A stretch of 32,754 nt of DNA from a virus. Location: the UHGV virus genome UHGV-0097046, one strand, 5' to 3'. This document shows, piece after piece, positions 4,638-32,754 of the stretch. The position numbers and the translations under genes were made by a program. The notes beneath the pieces are model-generated. The model saw only the letters and a list, made by a program, of their open reading frames with translations. It did not search any database and was not told the DNA's origin. Numbering within the stretch: position 1 is the stretch's first letter; each line of letters starts with the position of its first letter.

Positions 4638-4871
4638 TCAAAAACCTGTTGCTTCTACGATCTGACCATCACCGATCTGAACATAGAATTTAATGTCTAA
4701 CTTCTTCATATTCTTATAGAATTGGGCAATTGAAATCCCATGTTCACTAAGAATCTGTTCTTTCGCTTCCTTACCACGATCCGCTGTATAATAAGCGTAG
4801 GCAATATCAGCCATTTGTTCAGCGTTAAAACGGGCAGGACGACCGCGAGTAGCTTTAGTAGTCATAGTCAT
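4638..4871 (-). CDS. Small Hin/resolvase-type HTH DNA-binding protein (75-77 aa) with N-terminal GRP basic arm
   Basis: TKATRGRPARF...GISIAQFYKNMKKLDIK; paralog of 1420..1602; GGAGA RBS suits the second ATG (start about 4865). Confidence 0.55.
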   Translation of the reverse strand: MTMTTKATRGRPARFNAEQMADIAYAYYTADRGKEAKEQILSEHGISIAQFYKNMKKLDIKFYVQIGDGQIVEATGF

Positions 4872-4903: not shown

Positions 4904-5497
4904 TTAGAGTGACTTACATTTTATCGGAAAAAGTTCTCCATCGTCAACCGACATAAAGAACTCTGCCTTAATCCCGTACTTCTTCAACCGTGAATAGTAT
5001 GTACCCCGACTTATATCAACCTTGCGAAGCACTTCAAAGAAGGATTTAGGATCGTTGTAATAGTGGCTGTACTTCACGTTAGCGAGTTCAACGAATAGTT
5101 CCCTTGTATCACCATAGCCTTTCTTGAAAGCCTCGTTACGATAGCGTGTAATAGCGTGATTCAATCTCTTCTGTTTCAACACTTCTCGGATCGACTTCCA
5201 CTGCAACCGATAGATAGGACCGTCATCAATGCGATAATAACGCTTGATATCAAAATCAAACCAATCTCGGACTCTCCGAAACTCTGTATGTGATGTTCTA
5301 TGCTTCTTAAAGAAGTTGTGAATATCGGTATACCCATGATCGCGATACAACTCGATTAAAATCTCTTTCGCTTCTTCGCGACTAAAACCGGATGTAGTGT
5401 AATCGGTCTTTAAGTGCTTATGTTTTACTGGCAAACGATATTCATGATCGGTACAAGACAAGGCTAATTCATCTCTTTCTTGCTGATTAATTAGCAT
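4904..5497 (-). CDS. Hypothetical protein (197 aa) with C-terminal Hin-type HTH-like segment
   Basis: Strong AAGGAGGG RBS; C-terminal ISRGTYYSRLKKYGIK resembles the HTH of the two small paralogs; divergent from terminase gene. Confidence 0.6.
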   Translation of the reverse strand: MLINQQERDELALSCTDHEYRLPVKHKHLKTDYTTSGFSREEAKEILIELYRDHGYTDIHNFFKKHRTSHTEFRRVRDWFDFDIKRYYRIDDGPIYRLQWKSIREVLKQKRLNHAITRYRNEAFKKGYGDTRELFVELANVKYSHYYNDPKSFFEVLRKVDISRGTYYSRLKKYGIKAEFFMSVDDGELFPIKCKSL

Positions 5498-5583: not shown

Positions 5584-7488
5584 ATGAAACTGATTTCTAA
5601 TAAGGCAAAATTAAAAAAGATTCTCAAAAATATCTCTGCTGCAATTCGTCCACCTAAAACCATGAAACCTAGCGAATGGGTAGAGGCTAATGTAGTTGCG
5701 ACCGATGGTGTTAAAGCCGGATCGCTAATTAAATTGCATCCCTTCCAACGTGGAATGATGGACGCGATCACCGAAGACCGTAGAAAAATTGTGTTTAAAT
5801 GTTCGGCACAGTTGGGTAAGACCATGATTCTTAACGGAATTATCTTCCATCGGATCGCGAGTAACCCTACTAATATCGGGGTGTTGCAATCGAATGTCCG
5901 CGAGTTGAATAGCTGGATCGCTGGTAAGGTGAAGCCAGTATTAGAGGCAACACCAGAATTAAAGGCGATGATCACCGACAAATCAGATCGCAATGCCGTT
6001 AACAACTCATCGATTATTCAGCTTCGTAACGGATCGTTTATGTATTTCATGTCGTTGAATAGTCCGTCACATCTTCGCGGTAAAACACTCCCTTTGATTA
6101 TTCTTGATGAAGTTGATGCGGCTGATGAGTCAGACGAAGGGAACCCGATCCAGCTAGCGGAACAACGCGCAACCACTTTCGGGGAAGATGCAAGGATCGT
6201 AATTGCTTCCACTCCAACCGCTCGTGATGGGGCGATTAACCAACAATGGGAACTCTCGGATAAGAGAAAATATCATGTCGTTTGCCAGCATTGCGGACAC
6301 AAGCACGTAATGGAATGGAGTAGAGTTTTCTTTGATTGGCATACGATTAACTGTAAATCACTGCCGAATCCAGATACTGCCGTTTATCGTTGCCCGTCAT
6401 GTGAAACTGATTGGACAGAAGGGGATCGCCTACGTGCTGTTGCTCAAGGTGAATGGATTGCTACAGAACCAAATGCGGAAGTAATCGGTTTTCATGCTAA
6501 CCGCCTTATGTCTCCGTTTAGTTCTATCCGTGCGTGTGTGGTGGACTTTGCTGATAGCTACGCGAATATGTCACTAGCAACGTTCTACAATACAGTCCTC
6601 GGTGAAACCTTCGATGATCTTAACGAAGATCGCACAGCCGACGAACTGGAAACGCTGAAAACTGATATTAGCCTAGACAATATTCCTGATGATGTACTGG
6701 CTCTGGTAGGTGGAGTTGACCAGCAAAAAGACCGTCTGGAATCTACCTTGCTGGGTATCTCTCGTAAGGGGATATGCGTAGTTGATCACCGATCATTCTA
6801 TGATGTGAACTGCGAACGCCACGAATCACCAGCATATGACCAGCTTTATAACTTCCTGAAAGCGAAATTCTATACCCGATCCGGTGAACGAATCCCGATG
6901 CTATCTGCTTTCGTGGACTCATCGAACGGACGAGCTACAAACGTGATCTACCGTTTTTGCACTAGGTGGCAAAACCTATGCGCCATTAAAGGCGCAAGTA
7001 ATGCTGATGCTCCAATCCTTCCGGCTAAGGACACAAGAACGGGCGGTTTTACTCTCAAAATTCTGGGCGTAAACAACCTTAAGACGATGATCCGTGAAAT
7101 GATTAACCGGAACTTGAGAGATGGCGATCCTCATACTGTCTTCCAGATTGGTGACGTTCCTGATGACTATTGCGAGCAATTGCTTTCTGAACAGTTGAAA
7201 CGGCAGGGTAATACCACACGTTGGGTAAAAGTTGGTCAGCAACGAAACGAGGCTCTCGACTGCCTGGCTTATTCCTATGCTGCTTCTCGCCATGTACTCA
7301 ATAAAATGTCATGGGAAAAACTCGAAGCCATCAAAGATAGTTTGAACCGTGAACCAGAAGAACCCGTAAAAGCTCCTGAAACGCAATCTGACGAGCAAAT
7401 CGAAGAAACTAAGCCAATCACACGACCACAACGTCAAAACATCGCCAGACGCCCAAATAGAGGCCGTAGCTGGGTAACATCGTTCTAA
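5584..7488 (+). CDS. Terminase large subunit, lambda gpA-like
   Basis: P-loop-like CSAQLGKT, Walker B LIILDEVD, and recognisable similarity to lambda gpA segments (EW..AN, PFQRG.M.A, HCGH zinc-ribbon-like, TVLGETF, RNEALDCLAYSYAA); first gene of rightward late operon. Confidence 0.88.
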   Translation: MKLISNKAKLKKILKNISAAIRPPKTMKPSEWVEANVVATDGVKAGSLIKLHPFQRGMMDAITEDRRKIVFKCSAQLGKTMILNGIIFHRIASNPTNIGVLQSNVRELNSWIAGKVKPVLEATPELKAMITDKSDRNAVNNSSIIQLRNGSFMYFMSLNSPSHLRGKTLPLIILDEVDAADESDEGNPIQLAEQRATTFGEDARIVIASTPTARDGAINQQWELSDKRKYHVVCQHCGHKHVMEWSRVFFDWHTINCKSLPNPDTAVYRCPSCETDWTEGDRLRAVAQGEWIATEPNAEVIGFHANRLMSPFSSIRACVVDFADSYANMSLATFYNTVLGETFDDLNEDRTADELETLKTDISLDNIPDDVLALVGGVDQQKDRLESTLLGISRKGICVVDHRSFYDVNCERHESPAYDQLYNFLKAKFYTRSGERIPMLSAFVDSSNGRATNVIYRFCTRWQNLCAIKGASNADAPILPAKDTRTGGFTLKILGVNNLKTMIREMINRNLRDGDPHTVFQIGDVPDDYCEQLLSEQLKRQGNTTRWVKVGQQRNEALDCLAYSYAASRHVLNKMSWEKLEAIKDSLNREPEEPVKAPETQSDEQIEETKPITRPQRQNIARRPNRGRSWVTSF

Positions 7489-28990: not shown

Positions 28991-29180
28991 AACAAAAGCG
29001 CCTCTGGTGGGCGCTTTTTTGTTAGAATATGCTGGCGACGTTAGCTATATTTCTGACTATTTTTTCATTATAGACAAATATACCGCAGACGATAAAGTCG
29101 TTTTTGACGAAGTAGATCCGTCTCTGGTTGAAGTAATGAAAGAACCGGAAGACCTAGAGCTTGATTTAAGCCAATTATAG
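28983..29180 (+). CDS. Doubtful small acidic ORF (65 aa)
   Basis: Starts inside endolysin stop region and contains the terminator hairpin at 28996-29020; may be non-coding. Confidence 0.25.
   Translation: MDKTKAPLVGAFLLEYAGDVSYISDYFFIIDKYTADDKVVFDEVDPSLVEVMKEPEDLELDLSQL
28996..29020 (+). terminator. Intrinsic terminator (aagcgcc-tctggtg-ggcgctt + TTTTTT) ending the late operon
   Basis: 7-bp stem and T6 run directly after endolysin stop. Confidence 0.7.
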
Positions 29181-29204
29181 ACTCTCTAACGCAATTAAAT
29201 TAAA

Positions 29205-29226
29205 AAGGGGTACGGATGTACCCCTT
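29205..29226 (-). terminator. Hairpin aaggggtac-ggat-gtacccctt with T-rich flank on the minus strand; terminator for the leftward recombinase operon
   Basis: 9-bp perfect stem; A-run upstream on plus strand gives a U-tract on minus-strand RNA. Confidence 0.55.
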
Positions 29227-29262
29227 AAAGCGTTTGGTTCGTTATACGGCGATTTAGGCCGC

Positions 29263-29535
29263 CTATGATTTATTTTCTTGTTCTATGAAAATCTTTCTCA
29301 CCTCATCAGAATAAATGTCTAGTGATTCCTCATAACATTTTCTGTATTCACCGTAATTACTGGTGGTCTTTTGACATAGCAATTTCAATGTCTTATGTGC
29401 TCCATCAATGAAAGCATCTTCTCTATAGGTTAGCGGTCTACGCATTTCTTGGTCTACGGTTGCCAATGCCAGGCAAGAATTCATAGATAAAATCAAACCT
29501 AAAATCTTAATCATCTTCATTAGCTTAAATTCCAA
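29263..29535 (-). CDS. Small secreted protein (about 83-90 aa) with signal peptide
   Basis: N-terminal hydrophobic segment MIKILGLILSMNSCLALA with AxA-type cleavage site; overlaps recombinase stop by 11 nt (co-transcribed). Confidence 0.55.
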   Translation of the reverse strand: MEFKLMKMIKILGLILSMNSCLALATVDQEMRRPLTYREDAFIDGAHKTLKLLCQKTTSNYGEYRKCYEESLDIYSDEVRKIFIEQENKS

Positions 29536-31219
29536 ATTCTTGTAATGGACCTGGTATTTCTTCTTCTGGTTTCCAGTTCTTATCTGTCAGCATGTCTAAA
29601 CATGGATGCAGAACAAGCCCGTTACTCTCCAGAATCTGCCTATCATTGATAGTCTTCAAATCAACGAAGATCCGGCCTTTCCTCGGTCCTCTTGAATTTT
29701 CTATTACAACTCTCTGGGTCTTGCCATCGATGTATTCCAGTACAAACAAGTTTTTGTACTTGTCAATCCTGCTACACCCGATCCGTTTTAGAGCTTGCTT
29801 AATCTTAAACCGGACCTTAATGCGATCCTCGTTGTAAACATCTTCTAAATCAAATTCTGCGAGCTTCTCCCAGCCTTGAGAGTCAACAGAATACATTTCC
29901 TCTTCTGCCATCTTAATTTGATTGTAGAGTGTTTCACGCTCGCTATTGAGGGTAGTAATCTGATCGGCTAGCTCCTTCGTTGCTCCTGTCATAGCAGAAA
30001 GGGTAATCAGGTTATCAATCTTGCGTGATATTTCATCAATCTGTACTTTCAAAGCCGGAACCGGATTAGCCTTATCTTCAGCAATCCAGATTTTATCAGC
30101 CAGCAATTGCAATACAGCTTTCTCTAATTGGTCGCCGCGAAAACTCCAGTTTGTATGCACACATTCAATACGACTAGAGCGCATTGCATCGCATGAATAA
30201 CGATATTGGTTAGGCCGTCTGTTTGTTCCTTTCACCTTAACCATAGCGGAACCGCAATGTTCACATTTCAATAGACCAACACCACTAAGCAAGGGAATAG
30301 GTTTAACTTCTTCTTTGTCTCCAAAGTTACATGCTCTAACACCAATGCTTTTCTTAAGGTGATAAAACTCAGCGTCATCTAGCACACGAGGATAATAATC
30401 CTTTAACTCATACTTAACGCCATCTACAGAGATTTCCTTGATACCAATCAAAGCGCGGGTATGGAACAACCTTTCAATCATTGCCCGTGACCAGTTTGAA
30501 TGCCTCTTGTGACTTGCGGCTGGTGGTGGTGTGTATGTCGCGTTAAGGTGATCCAGTATCTCGGCGGTTGACCGTCCATTCCTGCGTAATTCCACAACTT
30601 CCTGAACAATAGGGAAGAAGACCGGATGAGGAAGCACATAACCAGATGTGGTATCAGTCCACCACATATTCTTTCCAATTTCCTCGATTGCAACAGCCGG
30701 ATTTTGTGGATTTTCTTGATGAGCTTTAATCTTAATCAGTGCGCTTGAGTTAGTACGATTGCGCTTAGTCTGGCTTTCCTCATTACCACGGATGAATAAA
30801 AGGATGGAGAACATCAGGTCCATCGGGTTAGCGGTAACAGTATCCAGCGAGTAGATCTTGTTATCCATGCCAGTAACAATGGTTATCCCCCTACGGATGA
30901 TTGAAAGGAATAACTCCTGCGCACTGACAATATCGGCACGGGATAAACGGTCCAAGTTTTCGATGAATAGCCAGCTACCAACAGGAACGGATCTACCTAT
31001 TGCATCAAGGAAACGAGATAGCGCCCCTGTTTTGGAGTTAGCACCCTTAAACGCAGATACACCCAGATCCTGATAATCATTTACCAGTTCAAGGTCATAC
31101 TTTACCGCAATCTCTCTAGCCATCCTGATTTGTCGTTCATAACTCGAACCATCATTCTGACGCATAGACGAGAAGCGAATATACGAATACAGTTTAGTTT
31201 TCATACCATTTCCAAACAA
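29525..31219 (-). CDS. Large serine recombinase (serine integrase/resolvase family, 559-564 aa)
   Basis: N-terminal catalytic domain motifs YIRFSSMRQ (active-site Ser) and DRLSR; large C-terminal region with Cys-rich zinc-ribbon-like segment (CEHCGSAMV...YRYSCD...ECVH) and coiled-coil; track start is TTG at 31219, alternative ATG at 31204. Confidence 0.85.
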   Translation of the reverse strand: MFGNGMKTKLYSYIRFSSMRQNDGSSYERQIRMAREIAVKYDLELVNDYQDLGVSAFKGANSKTGALSRFLDAIGRSVPVGSWLFIENLDRLSRADIVSAQELFLSIIRRGITIVTGMDNKIYSLDTVTANPMDLMFSILLFIRGNEESQTKRNRTNSSALIKIKAHQENPQNPAVAIEEIGKNMWWTDTTSGYVLPHPVFFPIVQEVVELRRNGRSTAEILDHLNATYTPPPAASHKRHSNWSRAMIERLFHTRALIGIKEISVDGVKYELKDYYPRVLDDAEFYHLKKSIGVRACNFGDKEEVKPIPLLSGVGLLKCEHCGSAMVKVKGTNRRPNQYRYSCDAMRSSRIECVHTNWSFRGDQLEKAVLQLLADKIWIAEDKANPVPALKVQIDEISRKIDNLITLSAMTGATKELADQITTLNSERETLYNQIKMAEEEMYSVDSQGWEKLAEFDLEDVYNEDRIKVRFKIKQALKRIGCSRIDKYKNLFVLEYIDGKTQRVVIENSRGPRKGRIFVDLKTINDRQILESNGLVLHPCLDMLTDKNWKPEEEIPGPLQEFGI

Positions 31220-31267
31220 AAACGCCCCTACCGCGTATTATAACGATAGGGGCTAGGTGATTAAAGA

Positions 31268-31681
31268 TTAAAGAATTTCACGGCAGCTAATCAGGGAATA
31301 AGACGTATCACCTTTTTTAACATCAAATATAGGCGCGCCATCTACAGAATGCAGATATTTGATGTAGGATTTACCATCTTCGGAACCATAATATTCTTCT
31401 TTCTCGTTCTTATCTTCTTTCAGTTTTGGGCTTTTGATTGTTTTATCAAATACCGGATCGTTGAAAGCAAATTGACTATTATCATCATTCACTCGAACCT
31501 TTACACCGATAAAACCACGGTATTTGCCAGACGGCGCATGATAATAACGGTCGCCATCACGAAGATATTGTGTATCATCTCCTTTATGTTCGAAGTAGGA
31601 ATTACACACATAATAGGTATTAGCATTCGCAGCACCAACCAAACCCAGAGCAAGAACAACACCAGCGATAATCTTTTTCAT
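31268..31681 (-). CDS. Secreted protein (137 aa) with signal peptide
   Basis: MKKIIAGVVLALGLVGAANA signal sequence; two Cys; no family recognised. Confidence 0.6.
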   Translation of the reverse strand: MKKIIAGVVLALGLVGAANANTYYVCNSYFEHKGDDTQYLRDGDRYYHAPSGKYRGFIGVKVRVNDDNSQFAFNDPVFDKTIKSPKLKEDKNEKEEYYGSEDGKSYIKYLHSVDGAPIFDVKKGDTSYSLISCREIL

Positions 31682-31723
31682 AGTAGAACTTCCTCTTGTT
31701 GTTTGAATTACGATATATTTATA

Positions 31724-31852
31724 TCGTTAAAAGTTAATACTAATAATCAGACCAAACACAACCGCGCCAATCAAATCCATCCAGTCAATACACAAGCCGC
31801 TATATTCTTTCTTGAATGTCTTAGATGAAATGCCATCATGAAATTGTTTCAT
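31724..31852 (-). CDS. Tiny membrane peptide candidate (about 42 aa, MKQFHDGISSKTFKKEYSGLCIDWMDLIGAVVFGLIISINF); a second about 25-aa hydrophobic peptide lies just upstream (about 31855-31935)
   Basis: GGGGTGA and GGAG RBS-like sequences before each ATG; C-terminal TM segment; below ORF-track cutoff; coordinates approximate. Confidence 0.3.
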
Positions 31853-31953
31853 TGCTCACCCCATACTAACGACAATATAAGAAAGACTAATCATAGTTGT
31901 GAGACTACCTCCCACGAATGAGATAAAAGCTAACATGTTTGATTCTCCAGTTT

Positions 31954-31979
31954 AAAAAGCGGTGGGAATTGCACCCACC
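31954..31979 (-). terminator. Minus-strand intrinsic terminator (hairpin ggtggg/cccacc followed by GCTTTTT on the minus strand)
   Basis: 6-bp stem, 7-nt loop, U-tract on minus-strand RNA immediately after stop of 31983..32423. Confidence 0.5.
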
Positions 31980-31982
31980 AAA

Positions 31983-32423
31983 TTAGAAATTAATTAAGCG
32001 CGAACGATGGTCAGAGTATCCAGCAAACCTTTTTTCGTATAATTCGAAACACGTTTTATATTGCTCAATCTTCCAACCGTAGCGGGTAATCTTATTCAGT
32101 AGAACAATCACGGTATTCTCATCTAGGTATTGTCCTTGCTGTCCAATTACATAAGTCTCACGATTCAATCTCAGCTTACGGAAACCTTTAACACCTAATT
32201 CCTTAGCCACTGCTTTAATCTCTTTAATCTCACCTTCTGCGGCTACATATTCAGCGTCGATAATCTCAGGTGATGATCTCAGTGCTACCAGAACTAAGGC
32301 CATTGCTTCTTCTTCGGTACGAGCAACACCAGCTTTCTCGAAAGTCATCTCACCAAATTTACGAATCATGATATTGAACATTGTCTGTATTCCGTTTAAA
32401 TCTGCGGGAATAGTACCCGCCAA
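31983..32423 (-). CDS. Hypothetical protein (133-146 aa)
   Basis: Track start is TTG; first ATG (MFNIMIRKF...) about 42 nt downstream is preferred because a hairpin (gcggg...cccgc) occupies the upstream part. Confidence 0.5.
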   Translation of the reverse strand: MAGTIPADLNGIQTMFNIMIRKFGEMTFEKAGVARTEEEAMALVLVALRSSPEIIDAEYVAAEGEIKEIKAVAKELGVKGFRKLRLNRETYVIGQQGQYLDENTVIVLLNKITRYGWKIEQYKTCFELYEKRFAGYSDHRSRLINF

Positions 32424-32431
32424 ATTAGAAA

Positions 32432-32704
32432 TTACTTCTTGCTGATAAACTCTTTAGCGATAAAGTTGATTACTTCTTTCAGCTTCTTGTCTGTATCGAT
32501 GCACGCTGGTAATTCTTCTTTAATATCCTGCGGCAGATACACATTGCCTTTAAAGTGGAGGAAACCATCATTACCAATCATGTAGGAGAACATCCATTCA
32601 CAATCGTTATCCGCTTCCCAGAGCGCCACGGTCTCATCGTCAATCAAGGTAATGTCCATGTTGCGACGCGCTGCGTAGTTGATGATTGCTTTACCGATGT
32701 TCAT
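32432..32704 (-). CDS. Hypothetical small acidic protein (90 aa from ATG at 32704)
   Basis: GAGGGGG RBS 8 nt upstream of the internal ATG (MNIGKAII...); the track start at 32728 lacks an RBS. Confidence 0.5.
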   Translation of the reverse strand: MNIGKAIINYAARRNMDITLIDDETVALWEADNDCEWMFSYMIGNDGFLHFKGNVYLPQDIKEELPACIDTDKKLKEVINFIAKEFISKK

Positions 32705-32754
32705 TGTTGTACCCCCTCGTGTTATCATGGGTACATGATATTAGGGAAACCTAA

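Follow-up and report, generated by a model that had tools for sequence, protein, structure and literature searches.

A large serine recombinase as the probable integrase of an uncultured Escherichia coli prophage that splits hicB, with relatives in ycdX and codB

The virus genome UHGV-0097046 (32,754 nucleotides, henceforth referred to in its full length as the window) carries near its right end a gene for a large serine recombinase (LSR), a protein encoded by about 1% of complete Escherichia coli genomes and named in RefSeq only as a 'recombinase family protein'. We conclude that this enzyme is very probably the integrase of a prophage of about 35 kb, inserted into the antitoxin gene hicB at an AA dinucleotide by way of a phage attachment site (attP) of about 54 bp. 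An earlier sequence-only reading had described the attachment site as not identifiable. Searching host genomes for prophage copies, the check proposed in that same reading, defined both prophage junctions (attL and attR) and hence attP, and the phage half-site of attR, its crossover and 6 host nucleotides proved to be the last 34 bases of the window (32721-32754).

The window covers the greater part of an integrated E. coli prophage, which is temperate, of siphovirus type and uncultured. In complete genomes the prophage measures about 35-36 kb and interrupts hicB, which encodes the antitoxin of hicAB and lies between hicA and ydcR. The window starts about 2.56 kb rightward of attL, so that an LprI-family gene and the small terminase subunit are left outside it, and ends 6 nt beyond the attR crossover; being an integrated prophage, it holds no intact attP. 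Its genes include a gpA-type large terminase, portal, capsid-protease fusion, tail fibres, tape measure, tail tip, an M15 endolysin and a Rha/Ant regulator, and in this copy the structural gene set is complete and free of insertion sequences (IS). The best match of the large terminase (TerL) reaches 43% identity and those of the other morphogenesis genes at most 31%, so they are only remotely lambda-like. When the right arm was compared with 50,697 phage records by megablast, a single 63-bp match at chance level was returned, which indicates that the prophage has no cultured close relative. As the sequence-only reading had stated, the recombinase gene runs leftward, convergent with the late and lysis genes that end at 29180, and neither a tyrosine integrase nor a CI-type repressor, nor indeed any second recombinase, was found in the complete prophage by RefSeq annotation or by Pfam and PHROG scans of the non-structural arm.

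The attachment sites were obtained by a base-level comparison of attL, attR and the empty site of strain K-12. The bacterial site (attB) within hicB reads …GCCAGGCGAATTGGC-AA-ACCTAAACAGGAGATTAC…, attL reads …GAATTGGC-AA-CCCGAATGTAGTCAACCCAAAATAAC… and attR reads …GTTAT(T/C)(G/A)TGGGTACATGATATTAGG(C/G/A)-AA-ACCTAAAC…, giving a reconstructed attP of about 54 bp, GTTAT(T/C)(G/A)TGGGTACATGATATTAGG(C/G/A)-AA-CCCGAATGTAGTCAACCCAAAATAAC. The junction predicted for an excised form is …GATATTAGG(C/G/A)AACCCGAATGTAG…, and uninterrupted hicB reads …AATTGGCAAACCTAAAC…. Of 5,426 complete genomes, 5,281 have an uninterrupted hicB at the attB site and 35 contain the hicB junction. The portion of attR that lies in the window consists of:

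32721..32746, plus strand: P half-site (phage arm) of attR, GTTATCATGGGTACATGATATTAGGG
32747..32748, plus strand: central crossover dinucleotide AA of attR
32749..32754, plus strand: first 6 nt (ACCTAA) of the host B' arm, the 3' part of hicB, at the window end

The base immediately 5' of the AA (position -1) is C, G, A or T in attR depending on the lineage and always C in attB and attL, while the base immediately 3' of it (position +1) is C in attP and A in attB. Both differences can be seen in a single genome, that of strain HCP5S3_I4, whose P arm is that of the window and which has GGC-AA-CCC at attL and GGG-AA-ACC at attR. Because -1 varies in attR alone and +1 distinguishes attP from attB, strand exchange appears to be confined to the single AA dinucleotide at 32747-32748. 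An overlap of 11-13 bp between attL and attR suggested by a first BLAST comparison was an extension artefact; the true contiguous identity between attP and attB is 2-7 bp, depending on the lineage.

The two 26-nt arms of attP form an inverted repeat (18 of 26 positions) centred exactly on the AA, and 0.05% of trials with shuffled sequence give a score of 18 or more anywhere in the stretch (P ~0.0005). Symmetry of attB is weak (8/26), as is usual for such sites. Serine integrases characteristically use an imperfect inverted-repeat attP of about 50 bp, a weakly symmetric attB and a 2-bp crossover (PMC3783163), so that the short symmetric attP, weakly symmetric attB and 2-bp crossover found here are the hallmarks of a serine-integrase system. 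CC occupies positions 2-3 from the centre in all eight half-sites, and a candidate TAAC-like zinc-ribbon motif would lie at positions 23-26 in attP half-sites versus about 15-19 in those of attB. The sequence-only reading had proposed to look for the inverted repeat at 31220-31270, at 31690-31980 and beyond the window; the two named intervals hold nothing but one weak palindrome of 17 nt.

The recombinase is encoded by the following gene, which public gene calls start at the ATG and not at the TTG:

29525..31204, minus strand: large serine recombinase (integrase) gene; 559 aa from ATG 31204, 564 aa from the in-frame TTG 31219

Three Pfam domains score above their gathering cut-offs: Resolvase (PF00239, residues 11-158, 54 bits against a cut-off of 23), Recombinase (PF07508, residues 203-291, 32 against 21) and Zn_ribbon_recom (PF13408, residues 315-373, 38 against 25). 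PHROG 95, 'integrase', matches at 1e-58. Both catalytic motifs noticed previously are present, YIRFSSMRQ (R10, S12, Q16) and DRLSR (D85, R86, R89), and in an alignment of 41 homologs extending down to 27% identity R10, Q16, D85, R86 and R89 are invariant, as are the zinc-ribbon ligands C314, C317, C338 and C348, with S12 conserved in at least 90%. An AlphaFold2 model (mean predicted local distance difference test score, pLDDT, 82.5) places the domains as follows:

residues ~1-125: catalytic alpha/beta domain
residues 127-164: long alphaE helix
residues 196-292: helical recombinase domain (RD)
residues 312-372: zinc ribbon, with beta-ribbon strands at 312-356
residues 382-438: predicted two-helix antiparallel coiled-coil (helices 382-406 and 410-438), pLDDT mostly 80-88
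residues 472-533: extra beta-rich C-terminal domain

The top Foldseek matches of this model in the PDB are full-length serine integrase-DNA complexes (9dxf, 9dxd, phiC31, 4kis, Bxb1; E values 1e-17 to 1e-7). Its catalytic fold is that of the TP901-1, Sin and gamma-delta catalytic domains, and its recombinase domain aligns to 4bqq, 4kis and 9dxf. A sequence search of the PDB reached the catalytic-domain structure 3guv alone; PDB matches to the C-terminal domains emerged from the fold search. The exact 559-aa protein occurs in 885 blocks of an assembly collection, all displayed as E. coli or Shigella, and an intact frame of this length extends across more than 70 protein clusters from E. coli, Shigella, Salmonella, E. 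fergusonii and Edwardsiella. The domains, the conserved residues, the fold matches and the length kept in these clusters establish an intact LSR of canonical architecture rather than a remnant. The earlier description of a serine recombinase of about 560 aa with a zinc-ribbon and coiled-coil C-terminus is thus borne out.

Other classes of recombination system were considered and rejected. A small serine invertase or resolvase (Hin, Gin, Tn3/gamma-delta) has about 180-200 aa and a C-terminal helix-turn-helix (HTH), unlike this protein of 559 aa with RD and zinc-ribbon domain (ZD). Such enzymes act on two sites in cis within the element, and neither att arm has a second copy within the window; inversion or resolution, which the sequence-only reading had listed beside integration, is for this reason unlikely. 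Integration is the likely function. A tyrosine system of the lambda Int type does not fit either: no such gene was annotated or detected in the complete prophage, and the junction identity is as little as 2 bp.

In the mechanism that we propose, an integrase dimer bound to the attP of about 54 bp would synapse with a dimer on attB inside hicB. Ser12 would cut all four strands with a 2-nt stagger at the central AA, the half-sites would rotate and the ends would be religated, yielding attL (5' part of hicB, AA and P') and attR (P, AA and 3' part of hicB). Catalysis, directionality and the need for an excision factor are inferred from membership of the family. The recombinase and zinc-ribbon domains (residues ~195-360) would choose the site, different alleles of this segment directing phages to hicB, ycdX or codB, and the allele of the catalytic domain would assort independently of the target.

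The crossover falls in codon 102 of the 138 of hicB, inside the Pfam HTH_3 domain (residues 88-134). The product encoded at attL, HicB(1-101) followed by NPNVVNPK, retains the HicB_lk_antitox domain only and loses the HTH. This truncated HicB presumably keeps the domain that binds HicA and neutralises the toxin, and lysogeny could reversibly rewire the autoregulation of hicAB. An insertion that shortens a chromosomal antitoxin within its DNA-binding domain offers a testable case of toxin-antitoxin regulation altered by a prophage.

Relatives of 72-98% identity insert in hicB, ycdX or codB. The junctions of a ycdX-type prophage in strain FDAARGOS_1267 again define an AA exchange, and its attP, GTGTTGATGGGTTTATGATATTAGGG-AA-CCCAAACGTTGTCAACCCACAATAAC, has arms symmetric at 16 of 26 positions; the ycdX junction is present in 25 of the complete genomes. 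A third type sits in codB. The insertion points are at about codon 134 of 245 in ycdX and about codon 122 of 419 in codB. Two genomes, NZ_CP157110.1 (UTME-9) and NZ_CP063332.1 (BS74R-D), contain both the hicB and the ycdX junction and therefore hold two prophages of one family. On the host side of the ycdX attR in FDAARGOS_1267 (L025, 7777-7820), the first ~45 nt of the ycdX remnant show about 12 differences from K-12 and still encode a YcdX-like peptide, the sequence farther out being near-identical to K-12; other ycdX lysogens match K-12 exactly at the ycdX remnant.

Alignment shows these recombinases to be mosaic. The catalytic domain comes in two alleles with about 79% identity between them, and the segment of residues ~195-360, which takes in the recombinase domain and the beginning of the zinc ribbon, comes in several. 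Across five genomes the insertion target tracks the allele of this segment and not that of the catalytic domain: the prophage with the other catalytic allele and a window-type DNA-binding segment (L031) is in hicB, and that with a window-type catalytic allele and a ycdX-type DNA-binding segment (L030) is in ycdX. We then classified 75 database recombinases by both segments and predicted the targets of four blind before looking them up. All four predictions were right:

P0042: predicted and observed site, ycdX
P0033: predicted and observed site, hicB
P0067: predicted and observed site, codB
P0070 (Salmonella): predicted and observed site, next to ycdY

A further recombinase, P0053, has an RD/ZD allele 81% like the codB type, on a contig that ends short of the target. 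Three distinct RD/ZD alleles all use ycdX; as RD/ZD divergence is not one-to-one with targets, our claim is limited to a correlation between allele and site and extends to no specific residues. Between the hicB type and one ycdX type (ycdX-a), whose enzymes are 92% identical overall, the P arm of attP is the same except at position -1 and the P' arm agrees at 22 of 26 positions. A tentative interpretation, which we hold to be somewhat short of probable, is that these phages form a natural allelic series in which a near-constant attP is retargeted to three unrelated intragenic attBs (hicB, ycdX, codB) by exchange of an RD/zinc-ribbon cassette some 165 residues long, the catalytic domain being reassorted separately. 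If this were so, and if the cassette differences between the hicB and ycdX-a types (about 20% of residues) were sufficient, they would mark positions that read attB and not attP.

Several observations weigh against our interpretation of the recombinase as the integrase of this prophage. The predicted attP junction CATGATATTNGGNAACCCGAATGTAG had no match in IMG/VR or JGI metagenome contigs, and searches of the same collections with single arms returned integrated copies only and no excised or circular form. The attL of the window's own genome lies outside the window and was taken from a strain 98.9% identical with the same P arm, and the correlation of allele with target comes from about a dozen sequences that share ancestry. 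Pfam and PHROG searches of the prophage open reading frames (ORFs) recognised no replication gene and no recombination directionality factor; together with the absence of a recognised CI-type repressor, this leaves the current activity of the integrase unproven.

The same gaps are what a domesticated or defective prophage would show, inserted by the recombinase in the past, now devoid of excision or transfer and with the gene surviving as a relic. Some prophage copies are moreover full of IS elements. We regard this alternative as unlikely, since the 559-aa frame is intact in the more than 70 clusters of all five enterobacterial groups named above, and the structural gene set of the window is complete and without IS. 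The many alleles, mosaic structural modules, three targets and double lysogens speak instead of repeated recent integration events. As regards the disrupted copies themselves, the insertions comprise IS2 twice, IS1 in the integrase gene region and IS5 in HCP5S3_I4 (L011/L012, NZ_CM149869.1); others (L014, L044) are IS421 in EC416 and IS1 in PigCaeca_2, which also lacks head genes.

It is much less credible that the recombinase is an accessory enzyme (an invertase, resolvase or passenger resembling YbcK) and that the prophage owes its insertion to another activity. In lambdoid E. coli phages the closest homologs, which are YbcK-like and 30% identical, lie mid-genome and are not known integrases, and a weaker PHROG match (2e-11) carries the name 'DNA invertase'. 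Yet the element contains no other recombinase and the window no second copy of an att arm, the junctions show a 2-bp exchange and, about 1.5 kb from the gene, a symmetric attP, the choice of target gene varies together with the DNA-binding segment of this very recombinase, and its size and domains are those of integrases and not of invertases of about 190 aa. E. coli YbcK itself (in DLP12) and the YbcK-like proteins of the lambdoid phages 4A7, Perceval and Lambda_4C10 belong to the same LSR family and come from the same host species (30% identity over 82%), but their genes lie inside lambdoid genomes, whereas the LSR of the hicB prophage is the sole recombinase and stands beside an att junction. 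Those lambdoid phages also carry a tyrosine integrase, and YbcK is not known to act in integration.

We give equally little credence to the suggestion that the recombinase and a small secreted protein encoded next to it make up a functional operon in which the small protein would serve as accessory or directionality factor. The features concerned, with the remaining genes up to attR, are:

29205..29226, minus strand: terminator-like hairpin of 9 pairs with a T-run, downstream of the small ORF and between the convergent units
29263..29520, minus strand: small orphan ORF, 85 aa from ATG 29520 (listed from a TTG as 29263..29535), with the signal-peptide-like N-terminus …CLALA|TVDQ
31214..31253, minus strand: terminator-like hairpin of 11 pairs (7 G-C) with a T-run, between the 137-aa gene and the integrase ATG
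31268-31681, minus strand: gene for a secreted protein of 137 aa, between the integrase gene (int) and attR
31983-32423, minus strand: 146-aa gene, phrog_14908, between int and attR
32432-32728, minus strand: 98-aa gene, phrog_6147, between int and attR

The small ORF shares the strand of the recombinase gene and starts 4 nt past its stop codon, and the hairpin at 29205..29226, the first of terminator type and the probable end of the leftward unit, comes only after the small ORF; co-transcription is for these reasons plausible, and this part of the operon claim, along with the signal-peptide-like N-terminus, stands. The functional part does not. The small ORF is an orphan: a search of 5.8 billion proteins yields a single near-identical cluster, Pfam and PHROG give no match, of 10 identical loci only 3 have it among their predicted genes, and a signal peptide would be unexpected in a cofactor of DNA recombination. 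Prophages with recombinases 92-98% identical have convergent genes of 323-391 aa in its place, which together with its orphan status argues that the two genes have no conserved functional coupling. The small ORF is most reasonably regarded as a chance resident of a variable cargo slot. This slot between endolysin and integrase (29181-29524 in the window; same positions in L015-L017, L025, L030-L032 and L035-L040) is a hotspot that in relatives holds a UvsW-like helicase with UvsY, CapR/MUG113-like genes (391 aa) or genes of 323-332 aa, and in the window the orphan alone.

Upstream of the integrase, the hairpin at 31214..31253 lies about 10 nt before the ATG and has a perfect TATAAT in its loop. 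Its position suggests that it insulates int from the upstream genes or controls its expression, and the TATAAT may be an embedded promoter or an element controlling read-through. The three leftward genes between int and attR (31268..32728) are only partly conserved in relatives.

Bacillus SPbeta, with its integrase SprA, and other gene-interrupting prophages that use serine integrases sit inside a host coding sequence, which precise excision restores. The hicB prophage likewise lies inside a host coding sequence, but no SprB-like factor or sign of regulated or developmental excision was found for it, and its family has three alternative targets. The best matches among cultured phages are from the Burkholderia phages Bcep176 (gp53), Bcep22 and JC1 (28-31% identity over 84% of the protein), LSRs of proteobacterial temperate phages that are annotated as integrases; these are distant and differ in virion type, host and attachment site. 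The integrase of Listeria phage A118 and the L. innocua prophage (LI Int; 4kis, 6dnw) has the same order of catalytic domain, alphaE, RD and zinc ribbon with embedded coiled-coil, and shares the intragenic attB (comK there, hicB here), the imperfect-repeat attP of about 50 bp and the 2-bp centre (PMC3783163). It is only 12-14% identical in structural alignment, and the enzyme of the hicB prophage differs by its Gram-negative host and the extra C-terminal beta-rich domain (472-533).

A survey of LSRs followed the same logic, using the ends of prophages to derive attP and attB sites that share a dinucleotide core, and includes enzymes from E. coli and other gammaproteobacteria (Durrant et al. 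2022, PMC10083194). The recombinase described here and its att sequences were not found in the available supplementary text of that survey, nor was a description of the hicB/ycdX/codB series, and the literature searched yielded no publication on the element or on protein accession WP_000850652. With LSRs of proteobacterial phages documented both there and by our homolog search, the setting is uncommon rather than surprising. The sequence-only reading had called a large serine integrase unusual next to lambda-type morphogenesis genes, which overstated the case given homologs of about 30% identity in lambdoid E. coli and Burkholderia phages and morphogenesis genes that resemble those of lambda only remotely.

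The recombinase of the hicB prophage is thus an ordinary kind of enzyme, a serine integrase with att sites now defined, and its most interesting aspect is the apparent natural modular retargeting within one phage family. A function and exact att sites can now be assigned to a 'recombinase family protein' that also occurs in Shigella, Salmonella and E. fergusonii, and the repertoire of serine integrases gains a defined attP/attB pair from a Gram-negative host. The hicB/ycdX/codB series, with its mix-and-match segments, provides a comparison for the choice of attB that is relevant to integrase retargeting in genome engineering.

Some further features concern the prophage ends and its left arm. 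In IMG/VR, prophage records with lengths of 35.3-35.6 kb start 324 bp ahead of attL; with its end 6 nt past the crossover, the window looks as if software for calling prophage boundaries had trimmed it near the true right end. The gene for the small terminase subunit (phrog_57; L011 17298-17852, beside attL and outside the window) occupies the leftmost position in the prophage, with about 8 kb and leftward genes between it and the large subunit (window 5584-7488), an unusual arrangement for terminase genes. A region of about 1.5 kb (1303-2845) has no ORF of at least 80 aa, is unannotated in RefSeq copies and has no Rfam or tRNA match. Two iteron-like direct repeats occur in it, AAACCTACACTAyAA in about four copies at 2169-2273 and GAAAGGGATTGGATA in three copies at 2459-2616. 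In a prophage without recognisable replication or repressor genes, this region could serve as an origin or operator. Finally, three leftward ORFs at 1420-1602, 4638-4871 and 4904-5497 (minus strand; 60, 77 and 197 aa), which match no family, have a common C-terminal motif (…KKYDIK / KKLDIK / KKYGIK…) and may represent a small family of DNA-binding regulators.

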